Assembly: GCA_937899865.1 (NCBI GenBank)
Contig: CALBRH010000025.1
Location: 32,001 to 96,000 of the forward strand
Length of the DNA stretch: 64,000 nucleotides
Reading direction: 5' to 3'
Source: an uncultured euryarchaeote
Lineage (GTDB): Archaea > Thermoplasmatota > Poseidoniia > Poseidoniales > Poseidoniaceae
The translations under genes were made by a program, and so were the position numbers. Numbering within the stretch: position 1 is the first letter of the stretch; each line of letters opens with the position of its first letter. A model generated the notes under the pieces. The model had not been told where the DNA came from. It did not search any database and saw nothing but the letters and a program-made list of their open reading frames with translations. Positions 597 through 18,209 of the stretch are shown here, piece by piece.

Positions 597-3500
597 TCAC
601 AAGTCTAAGTCATCTAAAATATCATTCAGAGAATTGCTTGCTGATTGAGTTGTAGTATCTGTAATTGTTGGTTGACTTTGAACCGCTGGGGCTGATTGTG
701 CAGCAAGATACTGTGCGCCATAGTACTGCCATTGTTCCATAGTCCAACCTTCTGGAAGACCAGTAGCAGGAAGTGGTGGAGATTGGCTTGCAACAGGTTC
801 TGGTTGAGGTGCTACAACTTCTTGTGTTACAGGTTGTGGAGTGGGGTTGTATGCAGCATATGGGTCAGGTTGTGTGGCAGCTTGAGGTTGCGGTTCGTAA
901 GAACTGTAAATGTCTGGCTGAACCGTTTCTTGTTGATATAAGCCAAACCCTGTATCGGCTCCAAGGTTATTGATTGGTTCACTAAATTGACTGGTAGTTG
1001 TACTTATGATAGTGAGGTCAGAATATTTATCGGATGTTGAACCAGAGTTTCTAGTAAATAGTAAGAATGCGGCAAGGCCAATTACGACTATTGCAAGGAT
1101 ACCAATTATCAAAGTTCCAACTCCACCAACAGAATCGGTAATTGCTTCAAGGAAACCTTCTGCAGGCTTTGCCTTCACAACAATTTCAATTGAAGTAGTA
1201 CTACTTTCACCGTCGTCGTCAGTAGCAGTCATGGTTATTGTCCATGTTCCTGGAGGTAAATCAGCAATCAACCATTCTGCACCATAGTGATCAATATCGC
1301 CGACCTTTTCACCATCAAGGTCCGAATCAAGATGATTACTATCCCATGCATAAATCAGTGACAATTTGTCAAATACTGTATCAGTAGTAGTAATACCTGA
1401 TAGAGTTAGGTTGTCTCCTTCATTCAATGCTAAGACATCAGTGCTATTGGTTATCTTAGCTCTTGGAGCAGTATTAATCACACTGACGTTGATACTTGTT
1501 GAGTCACTCGCACCATCATCGTCTGTAACGGTTGCAGTAATCCATCTAACTCCACTAGTTGGCCATGAAGCAGTCATTTCAAGCCCATTAATGTCACAGT
1601 CATTGTCAGCAACTCCATCCTCATCAGCATCACTTAAGGAATCTAAATCCCAACAGACTTCGAGATTATCAATATCTGATGCAGTGTCATCAACATCAGC
1701 AGTGAAAGTAATGTTATTGTCCTCAAAAATTGGTTGTGTAGATCCAAGTGAAGCAATTGATGGGGCCACATTTGAGATGTTCACTATTCCAGTTCTAATC
1801 TCAGACTTTTCATTATCGTTATCATATGCTACAACAGTTAGATTATGAAGTCCTGAAGTTGGCCAAGATACTGTTGTTTGTGATGAGGGCCCAACAGTTG
1901 TTATGGTCCAATTTTCATCCAAGTCAGAAGGCATCCATTCAATAATCACGGAATCTTTGTCCAAAGGAGTATCGTCTGCTACGGCTCGTAATATGACGGT
2001 TTCATCTTCGTTCAAGTTCCAGTAACCCATTTCATCAGTCGATTGGTTTTGGCCGGCTTTCCATAATTCGGGTTGGGCTAAGGTTGGAGCAACATTCAGT
2101 ACATCTAGAGTCCTAGTTATGGTGGTTATTGCCCCGTCATCATCTTCAGCAATCGCAGTTATTGTCATTGGACCTTCTTGGTTAGCAAGGAAAGTACATG
2201 TTGGCTGAGTAGTTCCTTCATTACAATTTAAGCCAGGCCAAGTAATTGTGACCTCTTGCCCGGATGGAGATATAGTGTCTACATCCCCACTATCACTAGC
2301 ATCAGCGAAGACGAATTGGTTAACCTCGATAGTTTCCGGAGCGCTCAAATTCATGTAAGGCGCACGATTTAATACGGTTGCAGAAACATCGATTATGTCA
2401 GTGTCAAGTTCATCATCGGTAACAATAACTTGTATATTCCAAGCTCTTCCGTCACTCCAGTTATATTCGATGATACAATCCTCACTGTCAACATTGTCAA
2501 TTAGTCCAGGTTGTTTTTCCACAGAGAATCGACAGGTCACCGCTCCACCATCTTCATCAAAACTTGCTGATGCATCGATAGTGACATTCTCAAAAGTATA
2601 AACTCCATCTACAACGGTTACTTGAGCAGTAGGAACTCGTCCAATAAATATCTCAACATTGGCTAAATTGTTGGTACGGTTTGAGTCTTCAGTAACTAGG
2701 TTATCAGGGTCTACTTCAATTAGCAGATTCTGAATTCCTATCGGTTCATTGGCTGGTACTTCCCAGTCTATGTCAACTCTTGATTCACCATAGGAAGGGA
2801 TTGACGGTAGAGGTTCGGTTATCACAGTACCACTTGGAGTTGTAACATCAATTGTAGTGGCAGTGGATGCAAGTAAGCCTCGGTTTTGAGTTGGAATAGA
2901 AAACGACAAAGTATCGCCAGGTAGAGCATTGTATCCAATTGATTTAGTTAGGGTTGATTCAACACCATCTCTGGTTCTAGTGACAATTATCGCATCGGTT
3001 TGAGCAATTAGATCAACCGGGGTAAGCGATAAATCAATCACGATAGTTGCAGCACCGACAATCTCTGCTTGAGGGTCCCAAACAATTAATCCGTTACTGG
3101 AAAAGTCATCACTAGAATTTGTAGTATCAACTACGTTAGATGAATTTACGATTTCTGTAGCCTGTCCATTGGCATCAGTTGTTGGATTGAGATATGTGTT
3201 AGTCATCTCATAACGTAGTTGTAGGTTAGTATTGGCCTGTGCATTACCGCTTGGCCCCCCATAATCTATGGAAATGGTTTGTTCTACATTTGGTAGAGTT
3301 GCAATTCCTTGTAAGCCAACATCAATTTCAAGGTCGCGGGTCCCTGGATTTGAATTCGGATTGACACCACTTGACCCAGCTGGCTCGTATGATTTAAGTA
3401 ACCAATCAATAGTAAATCCAGCAGCATTACTGATTCTCATCCATGAATTATATCTAACGTCAGGACAATACCAATTGAATCCTTGACTCACTCCAGTAAC

Positions 3501-4274
3501 GTTCCACTCGTTTATTTTGTATGAATCGTCGCATCCCGAATAACCAATATTGATGCCATCTTCGGTTGGAATTCCTTGAGCAGTAATTTGCCAACTGTTG
3601 TTTTCAGGCCCTGCCGTGTCAAATTCTGAGGGATCAAAATAATCAGAAGAACCGGAAACAGAGGTAGAAGCAAAGAATTCCATGTACCATTGATCACCTG
3701 TGTGTAGTGGGAAATCATACTTTTCTTTGGGTGGATTGTAAGATGTGTCAAAAGAAATTTCTGCTATATCTTGTTCTAAGAAGCCAAAATTAAACGGTCG
3801 AAATTTAACATCGAGAGTAAATTCAGAATTGATTACAGCCATATCACGAACTCGTATAACATCTTCACCACTATAACCTATGTCGAGACGACCACTAACG
3901 CCTTCTAAAGTCGCACCACTATTTCCAGAGGTAAAGTCTCCTTCAATTTCCATCCTGTAGGCTAATGTTTGGACGTTATTGACATTGATGAAGAAGATAT
4001 CCTTAACTTCGTAAACAGTATCTCCTGTCAAGGTGTTGAGAGATGCAGCAACATTAGCTTGTTGAATCAGTTGTTGAACATCAAACTGAGTTTCATAGGT
4101 ATATTTGTCACCAATTCGCCATGTAGGGACATCAGGCCAACCATTTAGTGTGCCACTTTCACTTATTGTTGGAGTATCAGTTAGGCTGTTTTGTTTTGAG
4201 TCATTGAGGCTAGCCAATGGCGCAATAAACATAATTGAAATTAGAAGTATAGCCAAGCAGCGTTGCTTAAACAT
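597..4274 (-). CDS. Large secreted, C-terminally anchored surface protein (N-terminal PxWxxGDxWxY domain, CARDB-like domain, PKD-like repeats, TM helix, GWTMEQW tail)
   Basis: 1225-aa ORF with signal peptide; CARDB-like IEVDPDNLVTEDSNRTNN; repeated PKD-like (I/V)TVTDDDG...T motifs; DxDxDG motifs; TM GVGTLIIGILAIVVIGLAAFLLF; Pro/Gln-rich tail. Confidence 0.8.
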   Translation of the reverse strand: MFKQRCLAILLISIMFIAPLASLNDSKQNSLTDTPTISESGTLNGWPDVPTWRIGDKYTYETQFDVQQLIQQANVAASLNTLTGDTVYEVKDIFFINVNNVQTLAYRMEIEGDFTSGNSGATLEGVSGRLDIGYSGEDVIRVRDMAVINSEFTLDVKFRPFNFGFLEQDIAEISFDTSYNPPKEKYDFPLHTGDQWYMEFFASTSVSGSSDYFDPSEFDTAGPENNSWQITAQGIPTEDGINIGYSGCDDSYKINEWNVTGVSQGFNWYCPDVRYNSWMRISNAAGFTIDWLLKSYEPAGSSGVNPNSNPGTRDLEIDVGLQGIATLPNVEQTISIDYGGPSGNAQANTNLQLRYEMTNTYLNPTTDANGQATEIVNSSNVVDTTNSSDDFSSNGLIVWDPQAEIVGAATIVIDLSLTPVDLIAQTDAIIVTRTRDGVESTLTKSIGYNALPGDTLSFSIPTQNRGLLASTATTIDVTTPSGTVITEPLPSIPSYGESRVDIDWEVPANEPIGIQNLLIEVDPDNLVTEDSNRTNNLANVEIFIGRVPTAQVTVVDGVYTFENVTIDASASFDEDGGAVTCRFSVEKQPGLIDNVDSEDCIIEYNWSDGRAWNIQVIVTDDELDTDIIDVSATVLNRAPYMNLSAPETIEVNQFVFADASDSGDVDTISPSGQEVTITWPGLNCNEGTTQPTCTFLANQEGPMTITAIAEDDDGAITTITRTLDVLNVAPTLAQPELWKAGQNQSTDEMGYWNLNEDETVILRAVADDTPLDKDSVIIEWMPSDLDENWTITTVGPSSQTTVSWPTSGLHNLTVVAYDNDNEKSEIRTGIVNISNVAPSIASLGSTQPIFEDNNITFTADVDDTASDIDNLEVCWDLDSLSDADEDGVADNDCDINGLEMTASWPTSGVRWITATVTDDDGASDSTSINVSVINTAPRAKITNSTDVLALNEGDNLTLSGITTTDTVFDKLSLIYAWDSNHLDSDLDGEKVGDIDHYGAEWLIADLPPGTWTITMTATDDDGESSTTSIEIVVKAKPAEGFLEAITDSVGGVGTLIIGILAIVVIGLAAFLLFTRNSGSTSDKYSDLTIISTTTSQFSEPINNLGADTGFGLYQQETVQPDIYSSYEPQPQAATQPDPYAAYNPTPQPVTQEVVAPQPEPVASQSPPLPATGLPEGWTMEQWQYYGAQYLAAQSAPAVQSQPTITDTTTQSASNSLNDILDDLDL

Positions 4275-4319: not shown

Positions 4320-7300
4320 CTACTTTTGAGATTTTAACCATTCATGACCGTAATACTTCCATTGTTCCATAGTCCATCCGTCAGGAAGTCCGCCTTCGGG
4401 TAATTGCGGATCGGCAAGTAGATCATCGATTGAAAAATCATCAGAATCAGCAGCATTAGGTGGGAGTTGTAATGCTTGGTCAAAGACAAAACCAGGCGGT
4501 GGAGCGGCTGGTTTGCGAGTTTCTGAATTCAATTTTCCATCGCTATCAAATGCTGAATCTAGTTCATCTTGTTCCCAAGTTTTTACTTTTTCAGCATTGC
4601 TTCTACGACGTCCAACCAGTACAAGTAGCATGATTACGATTAATGCAAGAGCGAGTTGGGCTATTGGGTTGGCTTCTTCTCCAGCGAGTAATGCTCCAGC
4701 TTCTTCTATGATGTTGCGATCTGCTGGACCTACATCAACGACCATTTCCTTTGAGCCAGGTTTTTCTGGGTTTTCATCCCATACAATTGCTTTAATCGTT
4801 ACCTTACCTTCCTGCCTGAACGTATGTTCAACTCTAGCGCCAACTAGGTCAGCATCATTATCTTTAATTCCATCACCATTACTATCAAAGTTGATATCAG
4901 TATCCCATGCATAATTTAATCCACCTATGTCATTAAGTGAATCAGTGGTTGAGCGTGCATCAAGAATACATTTTTCATACGCTCGACATTGAATTGATTT
5001 GACTTTGACAAGTGGGGGGATATTGACAACATTGACCACTACAACTTCACTGGTTGTTGCGCCATCATCATCGGTCACGTGATAGACAACAGTATGTGAA
5101 CCACTTCGGTTCCAAGCATAATTGAAAACATCTCCAATGATATCACAATCATCACTGGCTCCTCCTATGCCATCACTATCTATTCCGGGGTCAACATCCC
5201 AGCATTTGACTAGTGATGCTAAATCACTTTGTGTATCTGTTGAGTTTCCAGTAATAGTAATTGTTTGGCCTTCAGCAATTGGTAAAATTGAATCTAATGG
5301 TTGTACTATTGGGGGGACATTTCTAATGTTTACCCAGCGCTCATTCGTTGAACTAGTAGCACCATCATCATCGGTGACATCGAGTCTAATGGTATGTAAT
5401 CCAGAGGTTTGCCAACTCATATCAAATTCAGTGACTCGGCCTTTCAAGAAGTAAATCAAGTCAGACTGGCGGTTATCTGGCCACCAAGTATGATCCAAAT
5501 CCTCTATATCATCAACAGAATCCTCAGCCTGTCCTTTTATAGTGACTAATTGGTCTTCATCAAGTTGCCAAATCTGCTGTTCATCAGATTCGATAATTCC
5601 ATTATTATCATACAGATTGATTATTGTACTGTGAGGAGCAATATTAGTGAATAAAATATCGATATTTGCTTCTGTTTGTGCTAAATCATCATCTACGCCA
5701 ATAGCTTTGAAAGAATGATAACCTTCAGTAGGAGCAGTAGTTGTACAAGTCTTAGTGTAATACCCTTCCATACACTGAGCATCAGGCCAAAAGACATCTA
5801 CCACTCCAGGGAATGGGTCTTCAGAATCAGTGTCATTAGCAAATGCATACAAGGTGATAGGATGTTCTACTCTTGCTTCAGTACGCATACTTCTAATTTC
5901 TATTAATGGAGCCCTATTAGTTATATTTGCATACAGGATTTGTTCGACCTCATCACGCTCTTCATCAACAACAGTGACAACAATTGGATAATTTCCATCG
6001 TCAATCCAAGTCCAATTAGTTTGACAACTGGTAGATACTACTTCCATGTAAGCCCATGAACGAGAACCGTCATCATAAGGGATGTCAAATATGCATGAAA
6101 CATTGCCGCCATCTTCATCGAAACTTGAGCTTGCATTTATGAAAACCTCGACCTTTGTTAGTGCACTAACATGATTTGCCACTGGAGTAGGCAATCTTCC
6201 TACGAATAATTCGATAATAGCATAGTCGTTGTTTGGATTGGCATCTGCAGAGTTCAATTCATCAGGGTCTGCTTCCCAAGAAATCGGTATATTTCCAATT
6301 GGTTGATTTTCAGGTACATCCCATGTGAAATTAGTTTTGTAGATTTCATAGGTAGATAGTGATGGCACTGGTAAATTGAAATCATTACCAGTAGGAGGAT
6401 AGATGCGCAAATCGGTGGCGACGCTATCTGAAATGCCATTATTTTGAATTGACACCTCGATAATAAGTTGATCACCAGGGAGTACATTATATCCTGAAAG
6501 AGAGTTTAATTGCTTTAATTCTCCATCCCTATTTCTAGTAATTATGGCTCTTTCAGCATCAGCGAATAAGTCCAATACTACAAGGTCATCATCAAGAGTG
6601 ATTGTCTTAGCCCCAACTAAATTGCCAGAGGTTGTTCTCGCTACTAATCCATGACTTGCCCAATCGTTTGAAGTAACTGAACCGTCTACTGAATTACCTA
6701 TGTTTATTATCGTCCAAGCACTGCCATTAGATGCTGTAGTTAGTGCTTGGACTTCACCAGTCGCTTCATGCCTTAGTTCTAGTGAAACACCGCTAGTACT
6801 GCCTAAACATCCTGCTGCAGACGAAGCGTTTACCCAGACCTCTATTGGCGTGTCCAAAGCGGTAACATCACTTTCAGTATCGATAAAAAGACAATCTTCT
6901 CTAATGCCAGGGTCATTGTAAATATTTACTCCAGATGAATCCTTTGGCATATATTCTTTGAGTCTAAAATCAATAGTTAGCCCGACATCTTCCTCAGTAT
7001 GCTTCCAAGCAAAATTTCGTGCTGCTGGGCAGTACCAAGTATACCCTGCTTCATCACCATCTGAATTAAATGAAGTGATTTCGTAGGATTGATCGCAACC
7101 TCCATAGTTAATCGATTGACCAAACTCATTGCTTGGTTTGCCAACATTTGTTACTTCGTAGGTTGAACTATTGGTATCTGAAGTTGGTGGAGGAAAAGGT
7201 GTAATGTAGTCACTTGAACCGGACCATTGTGATGTTGAGGTTACGGTAGTAGTCCATCTATCTCCATCTCTTAACGGGAAATCATAGTTTTCGCTTGGAG

Positions 7301-7841
7301 GCGAGTAGGTATTAGATATCGTAATGTCACCGATGGTCTGTTTCAAAAAGCTAATTCCACTTGGTGTGAATTCTATGAATAAATCTAAATCACTTCGAAG
7401 TGATGCTAAATCACTTACTCGCAAAACTTCAGTTTGGGTAAATTCAATTTCTGCGGTGCCGGTGAAGCTATCAAGTGAAACTCCTGATTTGTCAAAATTA
7501 GCCGAGGTTCTAACTGTGTAAACCAAGGTTGGCGTGCCATCAACATTTTGTTCTGAAATAGATAACACTTCAGTTATTGAATCCCCGTTTATTTCACCAA
7601 CATTAGCTTCCACTCCAGAGTCAATTACTAATTGCGTGGGGTCAAATGTCCCAGCATATTTCCATTTGTCACCCACGCGCCAAACAGGGACATCAGCAGT
7701 ACTGGCAGAAGACTTTGAACTATTTTCAGGGTCTGTGATGTCTTCCAGAGAGTTTGTTGCGTCGTAAGGAATTGTAGTTGAGAAAAGCATGATTGCTACC
7801 AAAGCCAGCGCTTTGATTTGCAGGTACGCGATGCTCCGCAT
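4320..7841 (-). CDS. Tandem paralog of the 597..4274 surface protein
   Basis: Collinear motifs with the neighbour (VPVWRVGDKW, YDFPLRDGDRW, WYCP, SSFDEDGG, VTDDDGAT, LPDGWTMEQWKYYG). Start placed at ATG 7841 (MRSIAY...) ahead of a signal peptide. Confidence 0.8.
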   Translation of the reverse strand: MRSIAYLQIKALALVAIMLFSTTIPYDATNSLEDITDPENSSKSSASTADVPVWRVGDKWKYAGTFDPTQLVIDSGVEANVGEINGDSITEVLSISEQNVDGTPTLVYTVRTSANFDKSGVSLDSFTGTAEIEFTQTEVLRVSDLASLRSDLDLFIEFTPSGISFLKQTIGDITISNTYSPPSENYDFPLRDGDRWTTTVTSTSQWSGSSDYITPFPPPTSDTNSSTYEVTNVGKPSNEFGQSINYGGCDQSYEITSFNSDGDEAGYTWYCPAARNFAWKHTEEDVGLTIDFRLKEYMPKDSSGVNIYNDPGIREDCLFIDTESDVTALDTPIEVWVNASSAAGCLGSTSGVSLELRHEATGEVQALTTASNGSAWTIINIGNSVDGSVTSNDWASHGLVARTTSGNLVGAKTITLDDDLVVLDLFADAERAIITRNRDGELKQLNSLSGYNVLPGDQLIIEVSIQNNGISDSVATDLRIYPPTGNDFNLPVPSLSTYEIYKTNFTWDVPENQPIGNIPISWEADPDELNSADANPNNDYAIIELFVGRLPTPVANHVSALTKVEVFINASSSFDEDGGNVSCIFDIPYDDGSRSWAYMEVVSTSCQTNWTWIDDGNYPIVVTVVDEERDEVEQILYANITNRAPLIEIRSMRTEARVEHPITLYAFANDTDSEDPFPGVVDVFWPDAQCMEGYYTKTCTTTAPTEGYHSFKAIGVDDDLAQTEANIDILFTNIAPHSTIINLYDNNGIIESDEQQIWQLDEDQLVTIKGQAEDSVDDIEDLDHTWWPDNRQSDLIYFLKGRVTEFDMSWQTSGLHTIRLDVTDDDGATSSTNERWVNIRNVPPIVQPLDSILPIAEGQTITITGNSTDTQSDLASLVKCWDVDPGIDSDGIGGASDDCDIIGDVFNYAWNRSGSHTVVYHVTDDDGATTSEVVVVNVVNIPPLVKVKSIQCRAYEKCILDARSTTDSLNDIGGLNYAWDTDINFDSNGDGIKDNDADLVGARVEHTFRQEGKVTIKAIVWDENPEKPGSKEMVVDVGPADRNIIEEAGALLAGEEANPIAQLALALIVIMLLVLVGRRRSNAEKVKTWEQDELDSAFDSDGKLNSETRKPAAPPPGFVFDQALQLPPNAADSDDFSIDDLLADPQLPEGGLPDGWTMEQWKYYGHEWLKSQK

Positions 7842-7910
7842 GCTATAGCGACGCAATACATAGGAAATGAACACTTCTCCTACCAAGTAGGAAAGGTTGA
7901 GAAGTTAATT

Positions 7911-11935: not shown

Positions 11936-12574
11936 ATGCGTCTATTAGTTGTAGATCTATTGGCTGAAAGAAAAGCGTTTGGCAAAGAAGGCGTAAGGGA
12001 AATTGTAGCACATTTTGACAATCCAGAAGTATTTCTTTGGTCGCCACATACAACAGAGAGAACTGAATACGGTTTTGGGACAGTTGTTGAGCAGCCAGTT
12101 GATTGCGATTTTATTGCCATAACCGGTTCTCGCCGGAATGTTAGTTCATGGGAGCCATGGATGGATGATGTTGCAGAATTAATCCGAACTGCTGAAGTGC
12201 CAATAATTGGAATTTGTTTTGGCCATCAGATTATTGCTGCAGCCCTTGGGGGTAAAGTAGAGCGAGCATCCAAAGGTAGTCATTTTGTTTCTGAAGTGAA
12301 ATACATAGATGGTGCTGTAGTTAATGCTGTGTTCACCCATCAAGACCACGTTGTAGATGCAGGAGAGTTAGAGGTGATTGCTTCTGCACAACATTGCAAG
12401 ATAGCGGCTTGTCAACATCCAACTAGGCCGATAAGAACAGTCCAATATCATCCTGAAGCAACATCTCGTATATTGTCTAAAGCACTTAAGCACGGTGATA
12501 TGACTAAAGTCGAAGCAGAAGTTTTTGATATGTCAAAGCCTTTGATAGATGTTTATGATTCACTCCTTGCTTGA
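11936..12574 (+). CDS. Class I glutamine amidotransferase-like protein (GMP-synthase GATase-like)
   Basis: ITGSR, GICFGHQ nucleophile elbow, QYHPE His-Glu. Confidence 0.85.
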   Translation: MRLLVVDLLAERKAFGKEGVREIVAHFDNPEVFLWSPHTTERTEYGFGTVVEQPVDCDFIAITGSRRNVSSWEPWMDDVAELIRTAEVPIIGICFGHQIIAAALGGKVERASKGSHFVSEVKYIDGAVVNAVFTHQDHVVDAGELEVIASAQHCKIAACQHPTRPIRTVQYHPEATSRILSKALKHGDMTKVEAEVFDMSKPLIDVYDSLLA

Positions 12575-13288
12575 ATTGGAAAGTTCAATGAAATCTTGTT
12601 CAAACGAGTAAAGACACAATATTAATCCAACAAAAAGAGCATATTCTGCATATGCTGCAACATCAATAGCATACTGGATTTTGTCCAAAGTTAGAATTGT
12701 ATCTCCCTCAAGTCCATATTTGTCTAAACCATTAACTGCACGAACGACTGCTTGAGACATTATCACATAGGATATTAATGATAGTGAGATACTAAAAATT
12801 CGCAACTTCTTCCCCTTCTTATTGGCATTTGGAATAGCAAAGTGAGCCACGATTGCCCATACCATGCCGCCTTGAAAAACCATTGAGGCTGTAATGACAT
12901 GTAGTGCAAGATAGTCATACATGTTAGCAAATGACATTACAAACAAATTTCCACCAGTGAAAAGACCGCATAACATTGCTAAAAACAATAATTTGCTAGA
13001 CTTTATTCTACTAAATTCGTACCACATCCGATAAGAAAATAGCATTTGAGCAAGTCCTGAAATTGCTAAACCAATTGTGAATACCCATCGCTCTACACCA
13101 GGGAAATCAGCTTCAGAGATGAAGAAGGGGAAGTCTCTGGAATTGCCATTTAGCAAATGAATTACCATGGCTAAAGGTACTACAGTAGCAGGTAGTAACC
13201 AACTAGTCTTAACTAGGGTTTCATCAGACAGGAATATTTTTCCAATTTTGATGCCATTTTTATCATTTTTCACTACGACACCGTGCAT
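12560..13288 (-). CDS. Frag1/DRAM/Sfk1-like multi-pass membrane protein
   Basis: About 6 TM helices; FPFFISEAD...ERWVFTIG, LHVITA and AAYAEY resemble the conserved PYIS/H/E positions of the DRAM/TMEM150/PGAP2 family. Start uncertain. Confidence 0.55.
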   Translation of the reverse strand: MHGVVVKNDKNGIKIGKIFLSDETLVKTSWLLPATVVPLAMVIHLLNGNSRDFPFFISEADFPGVERWVFTIGLAISGLAQMLFSYRMWYEFSRIKSSKLLFLAMLCGLFTGGNLFVMSFANMYDYLALHVITASMVFQGGMVWAIVAHFAIPNANKKGKKLRIFSISLSLISYVIMSQAVVRAVNGLDKYGLEGDTILTLDKIQYAIDVAAYAEYALFVGLILCLYSFEQDFIELSNSSKE

Positions 13289-13349
13289 GGCGAATGGATT
13301 CGTGCCTATAACCTTCAAGTGTGATGGCTAACACCGCAACCTGTTTCAA

Positions 13350-14837
13350 ATGCCTCTGCGAGTCCACGACACCCGCCGTCGAGAGAAAGTTCCGTTCAAA
13401 ACAATGGAGCCAGGTAAAGTCTCGATGTATGTCTGTGGCGTGACTGTATACGATAATTGTCATTTAGGCCATGCTCGTTGCTATCTTGCGTTTGACTTGA
13501 TCCATCGTTGGCTTGAAGCATCAGGATTTGATGTACATTATGTTCAGAATTTCACCGATATCGATGACAAAATCATCAATCGTGCCAACGAAACAGGAGC
13601 AGATTGGCGAAAATTGGTAGATGAAAATATTGCAGGATATTATGAAGATATGGACGCACTCAACATATTGAGAGCTGATGATTATCCACGTTGTACGGAA
13701 TATGTAGATGATATGATTCGTATTACTCAAGATTTAATCGATAAAAATCATGCATATACTGCCCACGATGGCGTTTACTTCCATGTTGAGTCAGCACCTG
13801 AGAAATATGGGCAATTGACCGGGCAAAGTATTGATGCGGTACGCTCAGGTGCAGGTGGTCGAGTCGATGATACTGGATCTGGAAAGCGAGATCACAAGGA
13901 TTTCGCTCTTTGGAAAGCCGCTAAACCAGGTGAGCCACACTGGGATTCTCCTTGGGGGCCAGGAAGGCCTGGTTGGCATATCGAATGTACTGCAATGTCA
14001 ATGGATTACTTTGGCAAACAGTTTGATATTCACGGTGGGGGTCATGATTTGCGATTCCCGCATCATGAAGCAGAAATCTTCCAAGGTGAATGTCACACAG
14101 GTTGTTCACCAGTAGTTCATCATTGGTTGCACAATGGTTTTGTTAATATCGATGGAGAGAAAATGAGTAAATCTCTGGACAACTTTTGGACTATCAAAGA
14201 TATCCTGAAACAAGTTGATGCAATGGTGTTAAGATTTGCTTTAATCAATGCACATTATCGCTCACCAATCGATATGAATGAGACCTTGTTAAAGGATGCT
14301 GAGCGCAATTATAATCGTGTTTTGAAGTGCTATATCAATGCACTAAAGAGCATGACTACGAAGTCACCAATTGCATTACCACAACCAGATATTACTTCTC
14401 AACAGCCGCTAATCAAGTCTTTAGCAATGCTCGAGAAAATGGGCGAAGGATTTGCTCAAGCAATGGATGATGATTTCAATTCTCGCGATGCAGTTGCTAA
14501 GGTTCTTGGAGGAGTAAGAGAAATTTCCAAAGTGCTAGACAGTGGTTTAGATGACGCAGATAAAGACGCATTTGCTCATTATGCAGTTGATTGGTTAGAA
14601 GAATCTGCAGGCGTAGTTCTTGGGATTTTACCAACTCGAGAATTTGCCTTATTAGAACCGGAAGAAGACCCGCGTAAAGCAGAGATTGCACCCCGAGTGG
14701 AGGGTCTTCTTATCGAGAGAGCAGAAGCAAGAGCTAACAAAGATTGGGCAAAGGCTGACCAAATTCGTGATGAGTTGAACTCAATGGGAGTAATCGTAAC
14801 TGATTCAGCCGATGGACCAACTTGGGAACTTGAGTAA
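13350..14837 (+). CDS. cysS: Cysteinyl-tRNA synthetase
   Basis: [46 protein letters not shown]. Confidence 0.98.
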
Positions 14838-14864: not shown

Positions 14865-17747
14865 TCACTTGGGCGGTGGTTTTAGATCAGGTAAAACCGG
14901 CACGAATTGTTTTGGTTGGTGCTTTTCCATCACTGTTAGGAACTCATCCAAACTGATTACTCCATCACCATTAGCATCAAATGTATCCAGCATAGCATCG
15001 ATATCTGAAACCTTTACAGAGTCTTTGAGCAATGTGTTGACAGCGGTTCGAATCTCTCTCCTTGAGACATAACCATCGTTAGTTTGGTCAATAGCAGTGA
15101 ACAACCTTACTGCAGAAAGTCCGGAGGATTTCATAGCGCTAGCAACCTTGTCCTTGATGTCGATTGAATCATCTTTACCATCAGAATCACTTGAAGATTC
15201 ATTCACATCTTCATCATCCCAAATTTTGTCGATTACTGTTGTTTGAGAATTAAGAAGATCATCATCGTCACCTCGACTGACAACATACAATCCAAATAGC
15301 AATGCAATCACAATAATTAGTAAAATTAGTTTCAATTGATTCTTTGTTGCTTCATCTGCTTCTGCTTCATCAATAAATTGGTCATCTGGTTGGTCAGCAA
15401 ACATGTCATCGTCATCATCAACAGTATTGTTATCGGTTGGTCCAGGTAATGTAGTAGTGTCGCCACCATTGTTGGTATTGCCGCCATTGTTGTTATTGTT
15501 ACCAGTATTTGTGTTGTCATCGGGAAGTTGAACATTGACATTTATCCTGTCACCATTTTCCATTTCAACAGTGTAATAATTGTCATATAATTTTGTCAAA
15601 TCAATGTGATAATTTGCATGAGTTGAACGATTGATTACATCGAAGTAGCGGTCATCTCCAGAAGTAAATATTGGGTCCAAAGTCAGGTTCTTCAAACGAT
15701 TAACATTATCTTTGTAATCACCATCAAAAGTAGTATTCAACCAAGCATTGATTTCTTCATCGCTGTCGCCGTTGAACTCGACCCAATTAGCCTTCATGTC
15801 ATCAAACTCATGACGCATAGCCATGGCCAGACCTGCCTCGATTTCGGCAAAGGTTTGACTACCATCTACCTCGGTCAGTGATGTCACATCTACGGCTTTT
15901 TGGAATCCTGTACCATTGACATATTCCCAATCATCACCTTGCAATTGTTGCATGAGGTCAACATCACCAAATACGGCTTTACCTTGTACTACGGTTAGTG
16001 CTACATCAGCATCAATAGCTTCAATCAAGTTTCGATATGGGTCTTCATGGAAGGTATCTATGACAACAAGGTCAGCATATAGGTCAGCCTTGATTCGTCC
16101 AACAAAAGGAGTCCACCCTGTGGCATCAGCAGGATTACAAGTAACCATTTCTACCAATTCATAATTGCTAAAGTGGCCACCAAGATTGTTGGTGTTCCAC
16201 ATATCTGCAACCTTTAATTCATGCAGGTTATTTTTCGAACCACTTGGCCCCCAATCTGGTGAGATTGAGATGCTTACACCTGCTTGGTCTGCCGCGACAA
16301 CATCAGTTGTATCACCGTATAGTAATAGATTAGAAAGCGGAGACCACACAAGTTCTGAATTGACACTAGCCATTTTACTAAATTGTGAGGAGTCTAATGC
16401 TGTTCCATGAATGACAATAGTTTCATCCATTATCAAATTCTTACTCCACAATGCATCAAATTCGTCTTTGCTGGATTGATCAACTCCTTCTGATAAGTGA
16501 ACAAACCACGCGTTTAGTGTTCCTGCCTCACTTTGACTAATCAGGTGGCTACCTGTATAATCGTCATCAGCAGCACCACATACAGCGCATGTAGAAATAC
16601 CGTCTTGTCCGAAGTTGTATAACTCGACATTTCTCGACAGAATGCTATCCCATGCTTGGGTGCCTGAACTTGGTGAACCTTGCATGGCAGTCACTCCACC
16701 GGAGACTGCTTGTACCTCAGCGTACTTCATCTGTTCACTTGCCATATCCCAACGATAAGTCGACTGAATATTGGTCTTCATCCAAGTAATACTTGGTCCG
16801 TAATCCCAGTTGTTACCCCATTGGTATCTGTTAGTGTATCCGCCTTCCTCTGACTTTTGAGAGTCACTAAGATGCACATCGAAATCCCAAAGAGGTATGT
16901 GATTGTAATGTACGTGATTGTGCAAATCAATCAATCCAGGATAAATTGTCCCTTCAGTTTCAACGATTGGCACATCAGTAAAATCAACACCAGCAGGTGG
17001 ATTGGCATTTGATGCCCATACCCCGGTAATCTTACCGTCACGAATCATCACATTTCCATCATTTATTACGTTATTTTCACCATCCATTGTGACAACTCTT
17101 CCTTTGAGAAGGAATGCTCTAGATGAGTCTGTGTTGGTCAACTTATAGCAATTAACAATGTTGTCAGGTACAGTATACGGCTCTGAATAATCTGCAGCCC
17201 TACCGGGGGTCGGGTCGTCCTTGGTTAAACTGCCATCATCCGAAATGTAAGACCTGCCATAACTAGAGTCACTTGCTGGGAAAGACATAGAGTTGATTAG
17301 ATTAGAATTGGTATCAGAAATACTGACTGTCTCGCCATCAAAATAACTCAGATCGAGGTCGGAATCAGCACGGAATACTACCAATCTCTCATCAGCATCG
17401 AGCGTAGTATTGTATGGAAGTTGACAAGGCGGGCTACCACTGGTTGTTGAAAGGAGCCAACTTGAGACATCCTGTGGTGCATCACCGGAATTCCATATTT
17501 CGATAAATTGGTCACTATATTTACCGTAATCTCCGTCGCCATTCCAGTCAACTGCGCCGTAGATGTTAGAATTAGTTTCATTGGCTACAAGATTATTTGG
17601 ACTAATGAAAAGTTCCGAAATAACCACATTTGCCGCACGACCATTTGCCTCTTTTGCATCGTCTAATTCTAGGCTATTGACTGTTGAAGACCATGAAGAA
17701 AACATCAGCAGCAGCAACACGCTTGAGGCAACTAGTACTCGTCGCAT
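14865..17747 (-). CDS. Secreted/membrane-anchored lamin-tail-domain + amidohydrolase-superfamily protein with C-terminal EF-hand pair
   Basis: Signal peptide from ATG 17747; LTD-like VVISELF...DQFIEIWN; PGLIDLHNH, VHLSEG, IHGT, SPDW metal motifs; Asn/Gly linker; TM; EF loops DQTNDGYVSRRE and DANGDGVISLDE. Confidence 0.8.
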   Translation of the reverse strand: MRRVLVASSVLLLLMFSSWSSTVNSLELDDAKEANGRAANVVISELFISPNNLVANETNSNIYGAVDWNGDGDYGKYSDQFIEIWNSGDAPQDVSSWLLSTTSGSPPCQLPYNTTLDADERLVVFRADSDLDLSYFDGETVSISDTNSNLINSMSFPASDSSYGRSYISDDGSLTKDDPTPGRAADYSEPYTVPDNIVNCYKLTNTDSSRAFLLKGRVVTMDGENNVINDGNVMIRDGKITGVWASNANPPAGVDFTDVPIVETEGTIYPGLIDLHNHVHYNHIPLWDFDVHLSDSQKSEEGGYTNRYQWGNNWDYGPSITWMKTNIQSTYRWDMASEQMKYAEVQAVSGGVTAMQGSPSSGTQAWDSILSRNVELYNFGQDGISTCAVCGAADDDYTGSHLISQSEAGTLNAWFVHLSEGVDQSSKDEFDALWSKNLIMDETIVIHGTALDSSQFSKMASVNSELVWSPLSNLLLYGDTTDVVAADQAGVSISISPDWGPSGSKNNLHELKVADMWNTNNLGGHFSNYELVEMVTCNPADATGWTPFVGRIKADLYADLVVIDTFHEDPYRNLIEAIDADVALTVVQGKAVFGDVDLMQQLQGDDWEYVNGTGFQKAVDVTSLTEVDGSQTFAEIEAGLAMAMRHEFDDMKANWVEFNGDSDEEINAWLNTTFDGDYKDNVNRLKNLTLDPIFTSGDDRYFDVINRSTHANYHIDLTKLYDNYYTVEMENGDRINVNVQLPDDNTNTGNNNNNGGNTNNGGDTTTLPGPTDNNTVDDDDDMFADQPDDQFIDEAEADEATKNQLKLILLIIVIALLFGLYVVSRGDDDDLLNSQTTVIDKIWDDEDVNESSSDSDGKDDSIDIKDKVASAMKSSGLSAVRLFTAIDQTNDGYVSRREIRTAVNTLLKDSVKVSDIDAMLDTFDANGDGVISLDEFLTVMEKHQPKQFVPVLPDLKPPPK
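15450..15525 (-). repeat. Low-complexity Asn/Gly/Thr linker (DDNTNTGNNNNNGGNTNNGGDTTT)
   Basis: Imperfect TTG/GTT trinucleotide repeats within the CDS. Confidence 0.7.
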
Positions 17748-17834
17748 GTAGCGACCTTTACTAACAAGGACATTAACCCGCCGGTATCGATTTGGCAACG
17801 ATTAGATGATAGACTAAATCAAATTGGTAGAGTT

Positions 17835-18209
17835 ATGGCCACATTAGATATTAGTGAACCAGAGTTCTCCGGAATCATTGAAAATAACAAAATTGTCATA
17901 CTTGACTTTTGGGCTGAGTGGTGTGGCCCATGTAAGGCATATGGGCCGGTGTATGAGCGGGTTTCAAACGAATTTGAAGATGTGGTTTTTGCTAAAATCA
18001 ATACCGAAGAGGAACCTCAATTGGGTAGAATGTTCAATATTAGATCTATTCCAACAACCATTGCTTTCAAAGAACAGATTGGCGTTTTTATGCAGCCGGG
18101 GGCGCTTCCGGAAGCAGCATTACGTGATTTAGTGGTAATGTTACAAGACCTAGACATGGATGAAGTTAGAAAAGAGATGGAATCTATGAAGACCGAAGAA
18201 TCAGAGTAA
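17835..18209 (+). CDS. trxA: Thioredoxin
   Basis: LDFWAEWCGPCK, FNIRSIPT. Confidence 0.95.
   Translation: MATLDISEPEFSGIIENNKIVILDFWAEWCGPCKAYGPVYERVSNEFEDVVFAKINTEEEPQLGRMFNIRSIPTTIAFKEQIGVFMQPGALPEAALRDLVVMLQDLDMDEVRKEMESMKTEESE

Follow-up and report, generated by a model that had tools for sequence, protein, structure and literature searches.

A predicted surface-tethered, deaminase-type amidohydrolase with an EF-hand pair inserted into its tail in a subclade of one Poseidoniales genus

Introduction

In enzymes of the cog0402 group, HxxE chemistry has so far been tied to reactions at heteroaromatic or amidine carbons, which are deaminated or dehalogenated. Marine Group II (MGII) archaea rank with the most abundant archaea of the plankton; they are uncultured, and what they take up from seawater has been deduced from their genes. 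The present work concerns one gene on a 64,000-nt stretch (the window) of contig CALBRH010000025.1 (positions 32,001 to 96,000, forward strand; assembly GCA_937899865.1) from an uncultured member of the Poseidoniaceae (Marine Group IIa), order Poseidoniales. The gene lies on the minus strand of the window at 14865..17747 and encodes a protein in which an amidohydrolase domain is joined, through a membrane helix, to a tail bearing an EF-hand pair. The product is probably a type-I surface metallo-amidohydrolase of the deaminase type, in which a Ca2+-binding EF-hand insert conditions an interaction of the tail.

Parts of this arrangement have counterparts in the literature. Extracellular nucleases that bear lamin-tail domains (LTDs) have been depicted in marine DNA degraders (bioRxiv 10.1101/528695), and MGIIa- and MGIIb-specific protein families with calcium-binding domains were reported by Méheust et al. 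2022 (PMC9258230, section 9). The protein itself was not found described in the literature on MGII or Poseidoniales in connection with amidohydrolase, lamin tail or EF-hand.

Results

Domain architecture and predicted topology

Open reading frame 14865-17798 (minus strand) is an uninterrupted reading frame. Its likely start codon, a Met at 17747, gives a 960-aa product which opens with a typical signal sequence; the complete coding sequence (CDS; 960 aa plus stop) is monocistronic. Coordinates of the features below, all on the minus strand, were checked by translation of the window sequence. From the N to the C terminus the protein consists of a signal peptide, a putative LTD, the amidohydrolase, a helical extension, an Asn/Gly/Asp stalk, one transmembrane (TM) helix and a tail containing the two EF-hand loops. 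This architecture is far beyond chance.

The signal sequence (residues 1-25; 17673..17747) combines an MRR n-region with a hydrophobic core and a Ser/Thr-rich c-region, and an N-terminal hydrophobic segment is likewise present in the orthologues. The LTD was recognized by a Pfam PF00932 match at residues 70-155 (17283..17540) which, at 28.7 bits, stays below the gathering cut-off of 34.3. The domain is called in the window copy because orthologues aligned over the same region score 38-70 bits; it probably extends over residues ~40-190. The stalk (residues 743-800; 15348..15521) is an Asn/Gly/Asp/Thr low-complexity segment modeled with pLDDT <50 and conserved at 71%, and is followed by the TM helix at residues 805-824 (15276..15335; hydropathy up to 2.96). 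In a hydropathy scan exactly two hydrophobic segments were seen, the N-terminal signal and residues 805-824. A signal sequence followed by exactly one further TM helix would put the enzyme on the outer face of the membrane and the C-terminal 136 aa in the cytoplasm, as expected of a type-I surface-tethered protein. The density of N-glycosylation sequons (0.9 per 100 aa outside, 0.74 inside) does not discriminate between the two sides.

The initial annotation, made from the sequence alone, had listed these features apart from the helical extension, and all were located at verified coordinates; two items of its list need qualification, as the LTD is sub-threshold in the window copy and EF loop 1 is not fully canonical. 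Its view of a single-pass ecto-enzyme agrees with the signal peptide, single TM helix and stalk found here, a layout kept in the orthologues, and the cytoplasmic side that it assigned to the EF-hand pair is also the one predicted by the topology.

Catalytic machinery of the ectodomain

The amidohydrolase core (residues ~205-600; 15948..17135), a composite beta-sandwich plus (beta/alpha)8 barrel, is matched by Pfam PF01979 (Amidohydro_1; E=2.9e-14) and by Amidohydro_3. Conservation of its catalytic residues was assessed in 119 representatives of the family. The HxH metal ligands H276 and H278 (16914..16922) are kept in 100% and 98% of these, respectively. In the HxxE motif (16488..16499), metal ligand H417 and E420, the proton-shuttle Glu of deaminase-type enzymes, are 99% and 100% conserved. 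The strand-6 His, H447 (16407..16409), is present in 100% and the strand-8 Asp, D498 (16254..16256), in 98%. A set of family-specific residues is likewise 98-100% conserved: R307, W310, E344, R372, a W-S-P-x-S-N segment, Y477, W499, E510 and K512. A pseudo-enzyme was considered and dropped because the catalytic residues are all invariant.

A family profile of 113 members was compared with solved enzymes. It matched the atrazine chlorohydrolase AtzA (E=7e-32), the methylthioadenosine/S-adenosylhomocysteine (MTA/SAH) deaminase 4f0r (E=3e-30), 8-oxoguanine/isocytosine deaminase (E=7e-26) and the E. coli guanine deaminase (E=5e-24). In these alignments the HxxE motif, the strand-6 His, SPxSN and the strand-8 Asp are all in register, and H276/H278, H417/E420, H447 and D498 align with the ligands of 4f0r and 4v1x. 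The AlphaFold2 (AF2) model of residues 195-765 has a pLDDT of 91.7 and a pTM of 0.92; when it was used as a Foldseek query, the top 50 matches were all deaminase/dechlorinase enzymes of the HxxE branch, with probability 1.0. The core is followed by a family-specific C-terminal extension of the enzyme (residues 601-742; 15522..15947), which is mostly helical in a confident AF2 model and is covered by many family members.

By predicted fold and catalytic machinery, the ectodomain is thus a member of the HxxE (cog0402-type) deaminase/dechlorinase branch, within which it falls into no characterised orthologous group. The deaminase-type HxxE machinery named in the initial annotation is borne out by invariant residues and by metal ligands that align with those of solved cog0402 enzymes. 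The reaction would be a hydrolytic attack on an amidine or amino-heteroaromatic carbon, and a nucleobase or nucleoside is a plausible substrate. Annotations of the relatives are generic (for example "amidohydrolase family protein"), as is the ESM Atlas label.

The EF-hand pair is an insertion into an older tail

Beyond the TM helix, proteins of the source organism's taxonomic family, Poseidoniaceae, carry one or two basic residues, a juxtamembrane Trp motif, a variable acidic linker and a C-terminal Pro-rich motif of the FVPxLPPxxPP type; the tails in the other large family of Poseidoniales measure merely 5-12 aa. In the window protein the juxtamembrane motif (residues 825-847; 15207..15275), of the IEK[IM]WD type with an invariant Trp, is common to orthologues with or without EF-hands. 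The C-terminal motif (residues 947-960; 14868..14909), of the FVPxLPxxxPP type, predates the EF insertion and reaches 99% conservation in close relatives. Between the acidic linker and this motif lies the EF-hand module of ~80 aa (residues 863-946; 14910..15161), which is found in the window protein and in orthologues of five to six sister species. Since EF-less orthologues retain both tail motifs, the EF-hand pair is an insertion.

Five EF-hand models of Pfam match residues 881-942, the best at 3e-11. PF13499 reaches 42.3 bits (9.6e-11; cut-off 30) and PF00036 42.5 bits (3e-11; cut-off 25.4). Both calmodulin lobes align with the tail at ~1e-9 and about 30% identity. EF loop 1 (residues 887-898; 15054..15089) has oxygen ligands at positions 1, 3 (Thr), 5, 9 and 12 and a Gly at position 6, and EF loop 2 (residues 924-935; 14943..14978) is fully canonical, D-x-N-x-D-G-x-I-S-x-x-E. 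The pair fits the EF-hand pattern of oxygen ligands at positions 1, 3, 5 and 12, Gly at 6 and a hydrophobic residue at 8.

In a tree of the ectodomains only (a quick IQ-TREE run, with midpoint rooting for drawing only), the EF-bearing proteins formed one group (SH-aLRT 98), sister to 16 EF-less copies of the same genus, and the outgroup genera had no EF module. This grouping, together with the EF-less outgroups, indicates by sequence comparison a single gain of the module in a subclade of one genus. Within the best 150 family representatives, only this subclade of the source genus has EF-hands; they were absent from all other clusters.

Regional conservation was measured as mean identity to the query over 125 close relatives. 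The EF module is conserved at 93% and the catalytic core at 95%; the adjacent acidic linker is at 32% and the C-terminal motif at 99%. Both EF loops are intact in species only 68-77% identical overall. The module is thus under purifying selection, being about as conserved as the catalytic core.

No close donor of the module was found in the same genome; the best match, in a multi-EF zinc-ribbon membrane protein, is only 27% identical. Complex prediction of the EF module plus two Ca with the juxtamembrane residues 822-862 gave a score of 0.00, which, in runs made without controls, speaks neither for nor against binding.

Natural variants of the tail were also seen. In P0219, a metagenomic fragment of 197 aa, a SAP-like helix-extension-helix segment separates the acidic linker from the EF module. 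At window position 15192, within the acidic linker of the tail, an independent contig from a marine metagenome carries a 21-nt in-frame insertion, in keeping with the low conservation of that linker. A different cytoplasmic ending, PPLPxxGLPxGWTMEQWxxYG, is shared by at least nine large type-I surface proteins of the same genome, encoded at window positions 597-4274 (minus strand) and 4320-7886 (minus strand) and on contigs C38, C39, C44, C47, C51 and C65. In P0132, an MGIIb-type orthologue of the amidohydrolase, it replaces the Pro-rich ending. This motif looks like a shared tail-docking signal.

Integrity and setting of the gene

An assembly chimera was ruled out, as the same fusion occurs in at least six other genomes, in more than 100 metagenomic proteins (86-94% identity) and in an independent DNA run; DNA from that separate study spans the TM-tail junction. 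In RNA libraries of two studies the EF region is matched by short contigs, a weak hint of transcription; coverage is patchy, and stretches without it carry no meaning.

The CDS is flanked by plus-strand genes for cysteinyl-tRNA synthetase (CysRS; 13350-14837) and thioredoxin (17835-18209), with genes for an S15 peptidase and isoleucyl-tRNA synthetase (IleRS) farther out. The amidohydrolase gene is a stand-alone unit amid housekeeping genes and belongs to no operon. At 12560-13318 (minus strand) the window encodes a membrane protein with weak, sub-threshold matches to Frag1/DRAM/Sfk1 and DUF998.

Distribution of the family

A search of 1.84 billion cluster representatives returned 671 clusters (50% identity level) at E<1e-30, which cover residues ~205-645 with 33-69% identity. 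The parent family is a large uncharacterised sister group of the cog0402 deaminases and chlorohydrolases, with members in Poseidoniales, Promethearchaeota, Burkholderiales, Actinomycetota, Acidobacteriota and Myxococcales. About 60% of the more distant members have an N-terminal hydrophobic signal, and some members have an LTD. Bacterial gene neighbourhoods gave no clue to the substrate: recurrent neighbours occurred in Burkholderiales only and were housekeeping genes (PNP oxidase, NUDIX, peptidase M90, DUF72, NAD synthase, SWIB).

Orthologues were found in 127 of the 151 Poseidoniales genomes sampled and in 20 of 22 genera; the source genus includes the MG-II chromosome CM001443.1, whose orthologue has an EF-less tail. 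At 45-70% identity, the Poseidoniales orthologues all have the signal sequence, the LTD (sometimes in two copies), the amidohydrolase, a low-complexity stalk and, toward the C terminus, a single TM helix. This signal peptide-LTD-amidohydrolase-TM layout is old, and proteins that have it are near-universal in Poseidoniales. A 2.5-kb contig of the same bin (C8:1-2548) encodes a second copy with the order LTD-LTD-amidohydrolase. Its identity is 61% to the window protein and 73% to an orthologue from another genus, and it probably represents mis-binned sequence rather than a paralogue.

EF-hands elsewhere in the genome and the order

The same genome has 15 EF-hand_7 matches in at least nine open reading frames. 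Such matches were present in 59 of 61 Poseidoniales genomes, as against one of 14 control genomes, and numbered 3-10 per genome (mostly 6-10) in Poseidoniaceae and 0-5 in the other large family. Cytoplasmic EF-hands are thus routine in this lineage.

Carriers in the same genome include DNA gyrase subunit A (GyrA; contig C63:116826-119594, plus strand), with a canonical C-terminal EF loop after the beta-propeller (Pfam EF-hand_5, 2.1e-06); a Ca2+ site has been reported in GyrA of M. tuberculosis (PMC3479174). The A-type ATPase subunit I (V_ATPase_I; C63:63824-66175, plus strand) has an EF-hand pair inserted at residues ~341-397, in its cytoplasmic part. Four further EF-hand proteins are encoded at C13:9235-11433 (plus strand), C5:10305-11609 (minus strand), C51:79534-81738 (minus strand) and C3:5902-9051 (minus strand). 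These are a 7-TM protein that combines an EF pair with a SAP domain; a Tudor/Agenet protein, likewise with an EF pair; a double zinc-ribbon protein that has eight EF loops and two TM helices; and an exported protein, bearing a signal peptide and a PGF-CTERM anchor, that has many EF loops and a collagen-like stretch. Two genes for Na+/Ca2+ exchangers are present in the same genome.

Discussion

Proposed function

According to the mechanism favored here, the protein would be exported, the signal peptide probably cleaved, and the LTD beta-sandwich and the amidohydrolase displayed outside the cell on the flexible Asn/Gly/Asp stalk. The amidohydrolase would hold a mononuclear metal, probably Zn. 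The LTD may keep the enzyme at polymeric material or at the envelope, with the stalk giving reach. The ectodomain most likely hydrolyses a C-N bond, of the amidine or aminopyrimidine type, in a dissolved or particle-bound N-rich small molecule, and would leave ammonium and a deaminated compound at the cell surface; dehalogenation of an extracellular small molecule is the alternative to deamination. On the inner face, the two conserved tail motifs would bind a cytoplasmic partner. The inserted EF pair most likely binds Ca2+, and through it some interaction of the tail would probably come to depend on Ca2+. The pair would be one more case of a habit of this lineage, the addition of EF-hand modules to unrelated proteins on their cytoplasmic side.

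Several observations weigh against this proposal. The positive-inside bias is weak in the source genus, with about one Lys/Arg on either side of the TM helix; it is clearer only in the wider family, where the mean number of Lys/Arg residues is 1.66 after the helix and 0.83 before it. Identity to the solved deaminases is only 14-19%. No curated equivalog cut-off of NCBIfam was reached, so the reaction could differ from deamination. The best match was guanine deaminase TIGR02967, at 58.6 bits (cut-off 375), followed by 5'-deoxyadenosine deaminase NF005557 (52.6, cut-off 522), TRZ/ATZ NF006549 (47.3, cut-off 540), 8-oxoguanine deaminase NF006055 (43.2, cut-off 532) and MTA/SAH deaminase NF012037 (23.4, cut-off 779). 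Position 3 of EF loop 1 is a Thr, a departure from the canonical loop. The AF2 model of the tail (residues 800-960, from eight sequences) is of low confidence, with a pLDDT of 48.8, and is usable for its secondary-structure pattern alone, whose order of helices and strands fits an EF-hand pair. No functional link was found among the neighbours CysRS, thioredoxin, S15 peptidase and IleRS.

Alternative readings

Identity of the substrate is the point on which an alternative comes closest. The ectodomain may act on something other than a nucleobase or nucleoside, such as pterins, formimino or guanidino compounds, triazine-like xenobiotics or peptide-derived amides, and we rate this a serious possibility just short of an even chance. 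Its best matches include chlorohydrolases and triazine hydrolases besides deaminases. The invariant R307, W310, E344, R372, Y477, W499, E510 and K512 differ from those of the MTA/SAH or guanine deaminases, the two invariant Arg hint at an anionic substrate, and Poseidoniales have been described as degraders of protein and saccharides (PMC9258230). On the other side, HxxE chemistry has so far been linked to heteroaromatic or amidine carbons, and LTDs often partner extracellular enzymes that process nucleic acids (bioRxiv 10.1101/528695). The "dissolved nucleosides" of the initial annotation are accordingly an unproven guess, as no cut-off of a named deaminase family was reached and gene neighbourhoods were uninformative. 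A tail placed outside by an inverted or alternative topology, with the EF-hands binding seawater Ca2+ (10 mM) structurally, would accord with the weak charge bias in the source genus and with the extracellular multi-EF protein with a PGF-CTERM anchor in the same genome. It is nevertheless very improbable: an N-terminal signal sequence and one more hydrophobic segment force the two sides apart, the LTD and stalk, which are typical exported parts, are on the side of the enzyme, and KKRK-type clusters follow the TM helix in distant members of the family. The SAP-like segment, of a nucleic-acid-binding kind, in the tail variant P0219 is supporting evidence for a cytoplasmic tail.

The remaining alternatives concern what the EF pair does. 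It could be a docking or buffering module, Ca2+-binding or Ca2+-independent, that is functionally unlinked to the enzyme, the protein merely anchoring an EF lobe under the membrane. EF modules do occur on many unrelated proteins of the genome and the order (GyrA, ATPase subunit I, Tudor, SAP, Zn-ribbon and 7-TM proteins), and with the nearest relative in the genome only 27% identical, recurrent modular reuse is suggested over co-evolution with the enzyme. The exact insertion between two conserved tail motifs, of which the C-terminal one is still 99% conserved, suggests instead that the module works with the tail, and we regard the unlinked module as rather doubtful. Less likely still is a more specific form of the tail interaction, in which the Trp-containing juxtamembrane helix and the Pro-rich peptide dock the enzyme to a cytoplasmic partner, the EF lobe gates this docking by Ca2+, and intracellular Ca2+ controls placement, clustering or turnover of the enzyme. 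If true, an archaeon would have inside-out control of the integrin kind, as one component of a genuine Ca2+ second-messenger layer in MGII. Slightly below it in our estimate, and unlikely, is the receptor-like coupling that had been suggested initially, in which occupancy of the ectodomain is relayed inward or cytoplasmic Ca2+ switches the activity or localisation of the ecto-enzyme through the EF pair. The placement of the module between the two tail motifs, its strong purifying selection and the invariant Trp of the juxtamembrane motif within a predicted helix, a feature reminiscent of calmodulin targets, would suit such coupling. However, the Pfam matches of the protein include no kinase, cyclase, DNA-binding or other output domain, a single TM helix with a disordered stalk of 58 aa is a poor conduit for a conformational signal, and most orthologues lack the EF pair, some having tails of just a few residues. 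Nothing thus supports signalling across the membrane by the enzyme itself, and the EF pair probably does not relay a signal from it; the pair is a late insertion, in one genus, into an older tail. The assumption that cytoplasmic EF-hands are rare also fails for this lineage, given their occurrence in nearly all Poseidoniales genomes and the families already remarked upon (PMC9258230). A surface amidohydrolase with an EF-hand insert that conditions a tail interaction thus stays the preferred reading.

Significance

The joining of an EF-hand tail to a deaminase-type surface enzyme is new as a domain combination and occurs only in a subclade of one genus. The enzyme itself belongs to a known branch, within which it represents a new and uncharacterised group, and its EF tail fits the lineage-wide EF-hand pattern noted before (PMC9258230), to whose expansion it adds a further well-defined case. 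A near-universal tethered enzyme of the deaminase type could free ammonium from dissolved organic nitrogen outside the cell, and is a concrete candidate for that role. The family is large and has no characterised member, and the window enzyme is clonable. The soluble tail of 136 aa, with natural EF-less orthologues as controls, offers a practical route to ask whether MGII uses cytoplasmic Ca2+ as a signal.

Comparison with known systems

The closest described enzymes are those of the cog0402/ATZ-TRZ branch: the MTA/SAH/adenosine deaminases TM0936 (1p1m) and Cv1032 (4f0r), AtzA (4v1x), TrzN, 8-oxoguanine/isocytosine deaminase (7ww2) and guanine deaminase (6ohb, 2uz9). The window protein shares with them the predicted fold, the mononuclear ligand set (HxH, the strand-5 His in HxxE, the strand-6 His and the strand-8 Asp) and the SPxSN motif, with profile E-values of 1e-24 to 1e-32 and a Foldseek probability of 1.0. 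It differs in invariant residues of its own, which are probably substrate-binding, and in a helical C-terminal extension of ~140 aa. It is also predicted to be exported and membrane-tethered, with a putative LTD, whereas the characterised cog0402 enzymes are soluble and cytoplasmic. Of the uncharacterised "amidohydrolase family protein" clade it is a true member, with 33-69% core identity and identical invariant residues.

With EF-hand pairs and calmodulin lobes (PF13499) the tail has in common two helix-loop-helix units with 12-residue loops; it has just one lobe, and its Ca2+ binding is predicted. EfhP of Pseudomonas aeruginosa (PMC4053335) similarly combines a single TM helix with one EF pair. 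The EF-hands of EfhP are, however, predicted to be periplasmic and are not joined to an enzyme domain, whereas the EF pair of the window protein would lie on the cytoplasmic side of a surface enzyme. Prokaryotic LTD surface hydrolases, in which an LTD accompanies extracellular nucleases or phosphoesterases, resemble the window protein, with its putative LTD, in having such a domain at the N terminus of an exported hydrolase. Unlike in the LTD nucleases, the partner domain here is an amidohydrolase of the deaminase type, and the LTD of the window copy scores below threshold.

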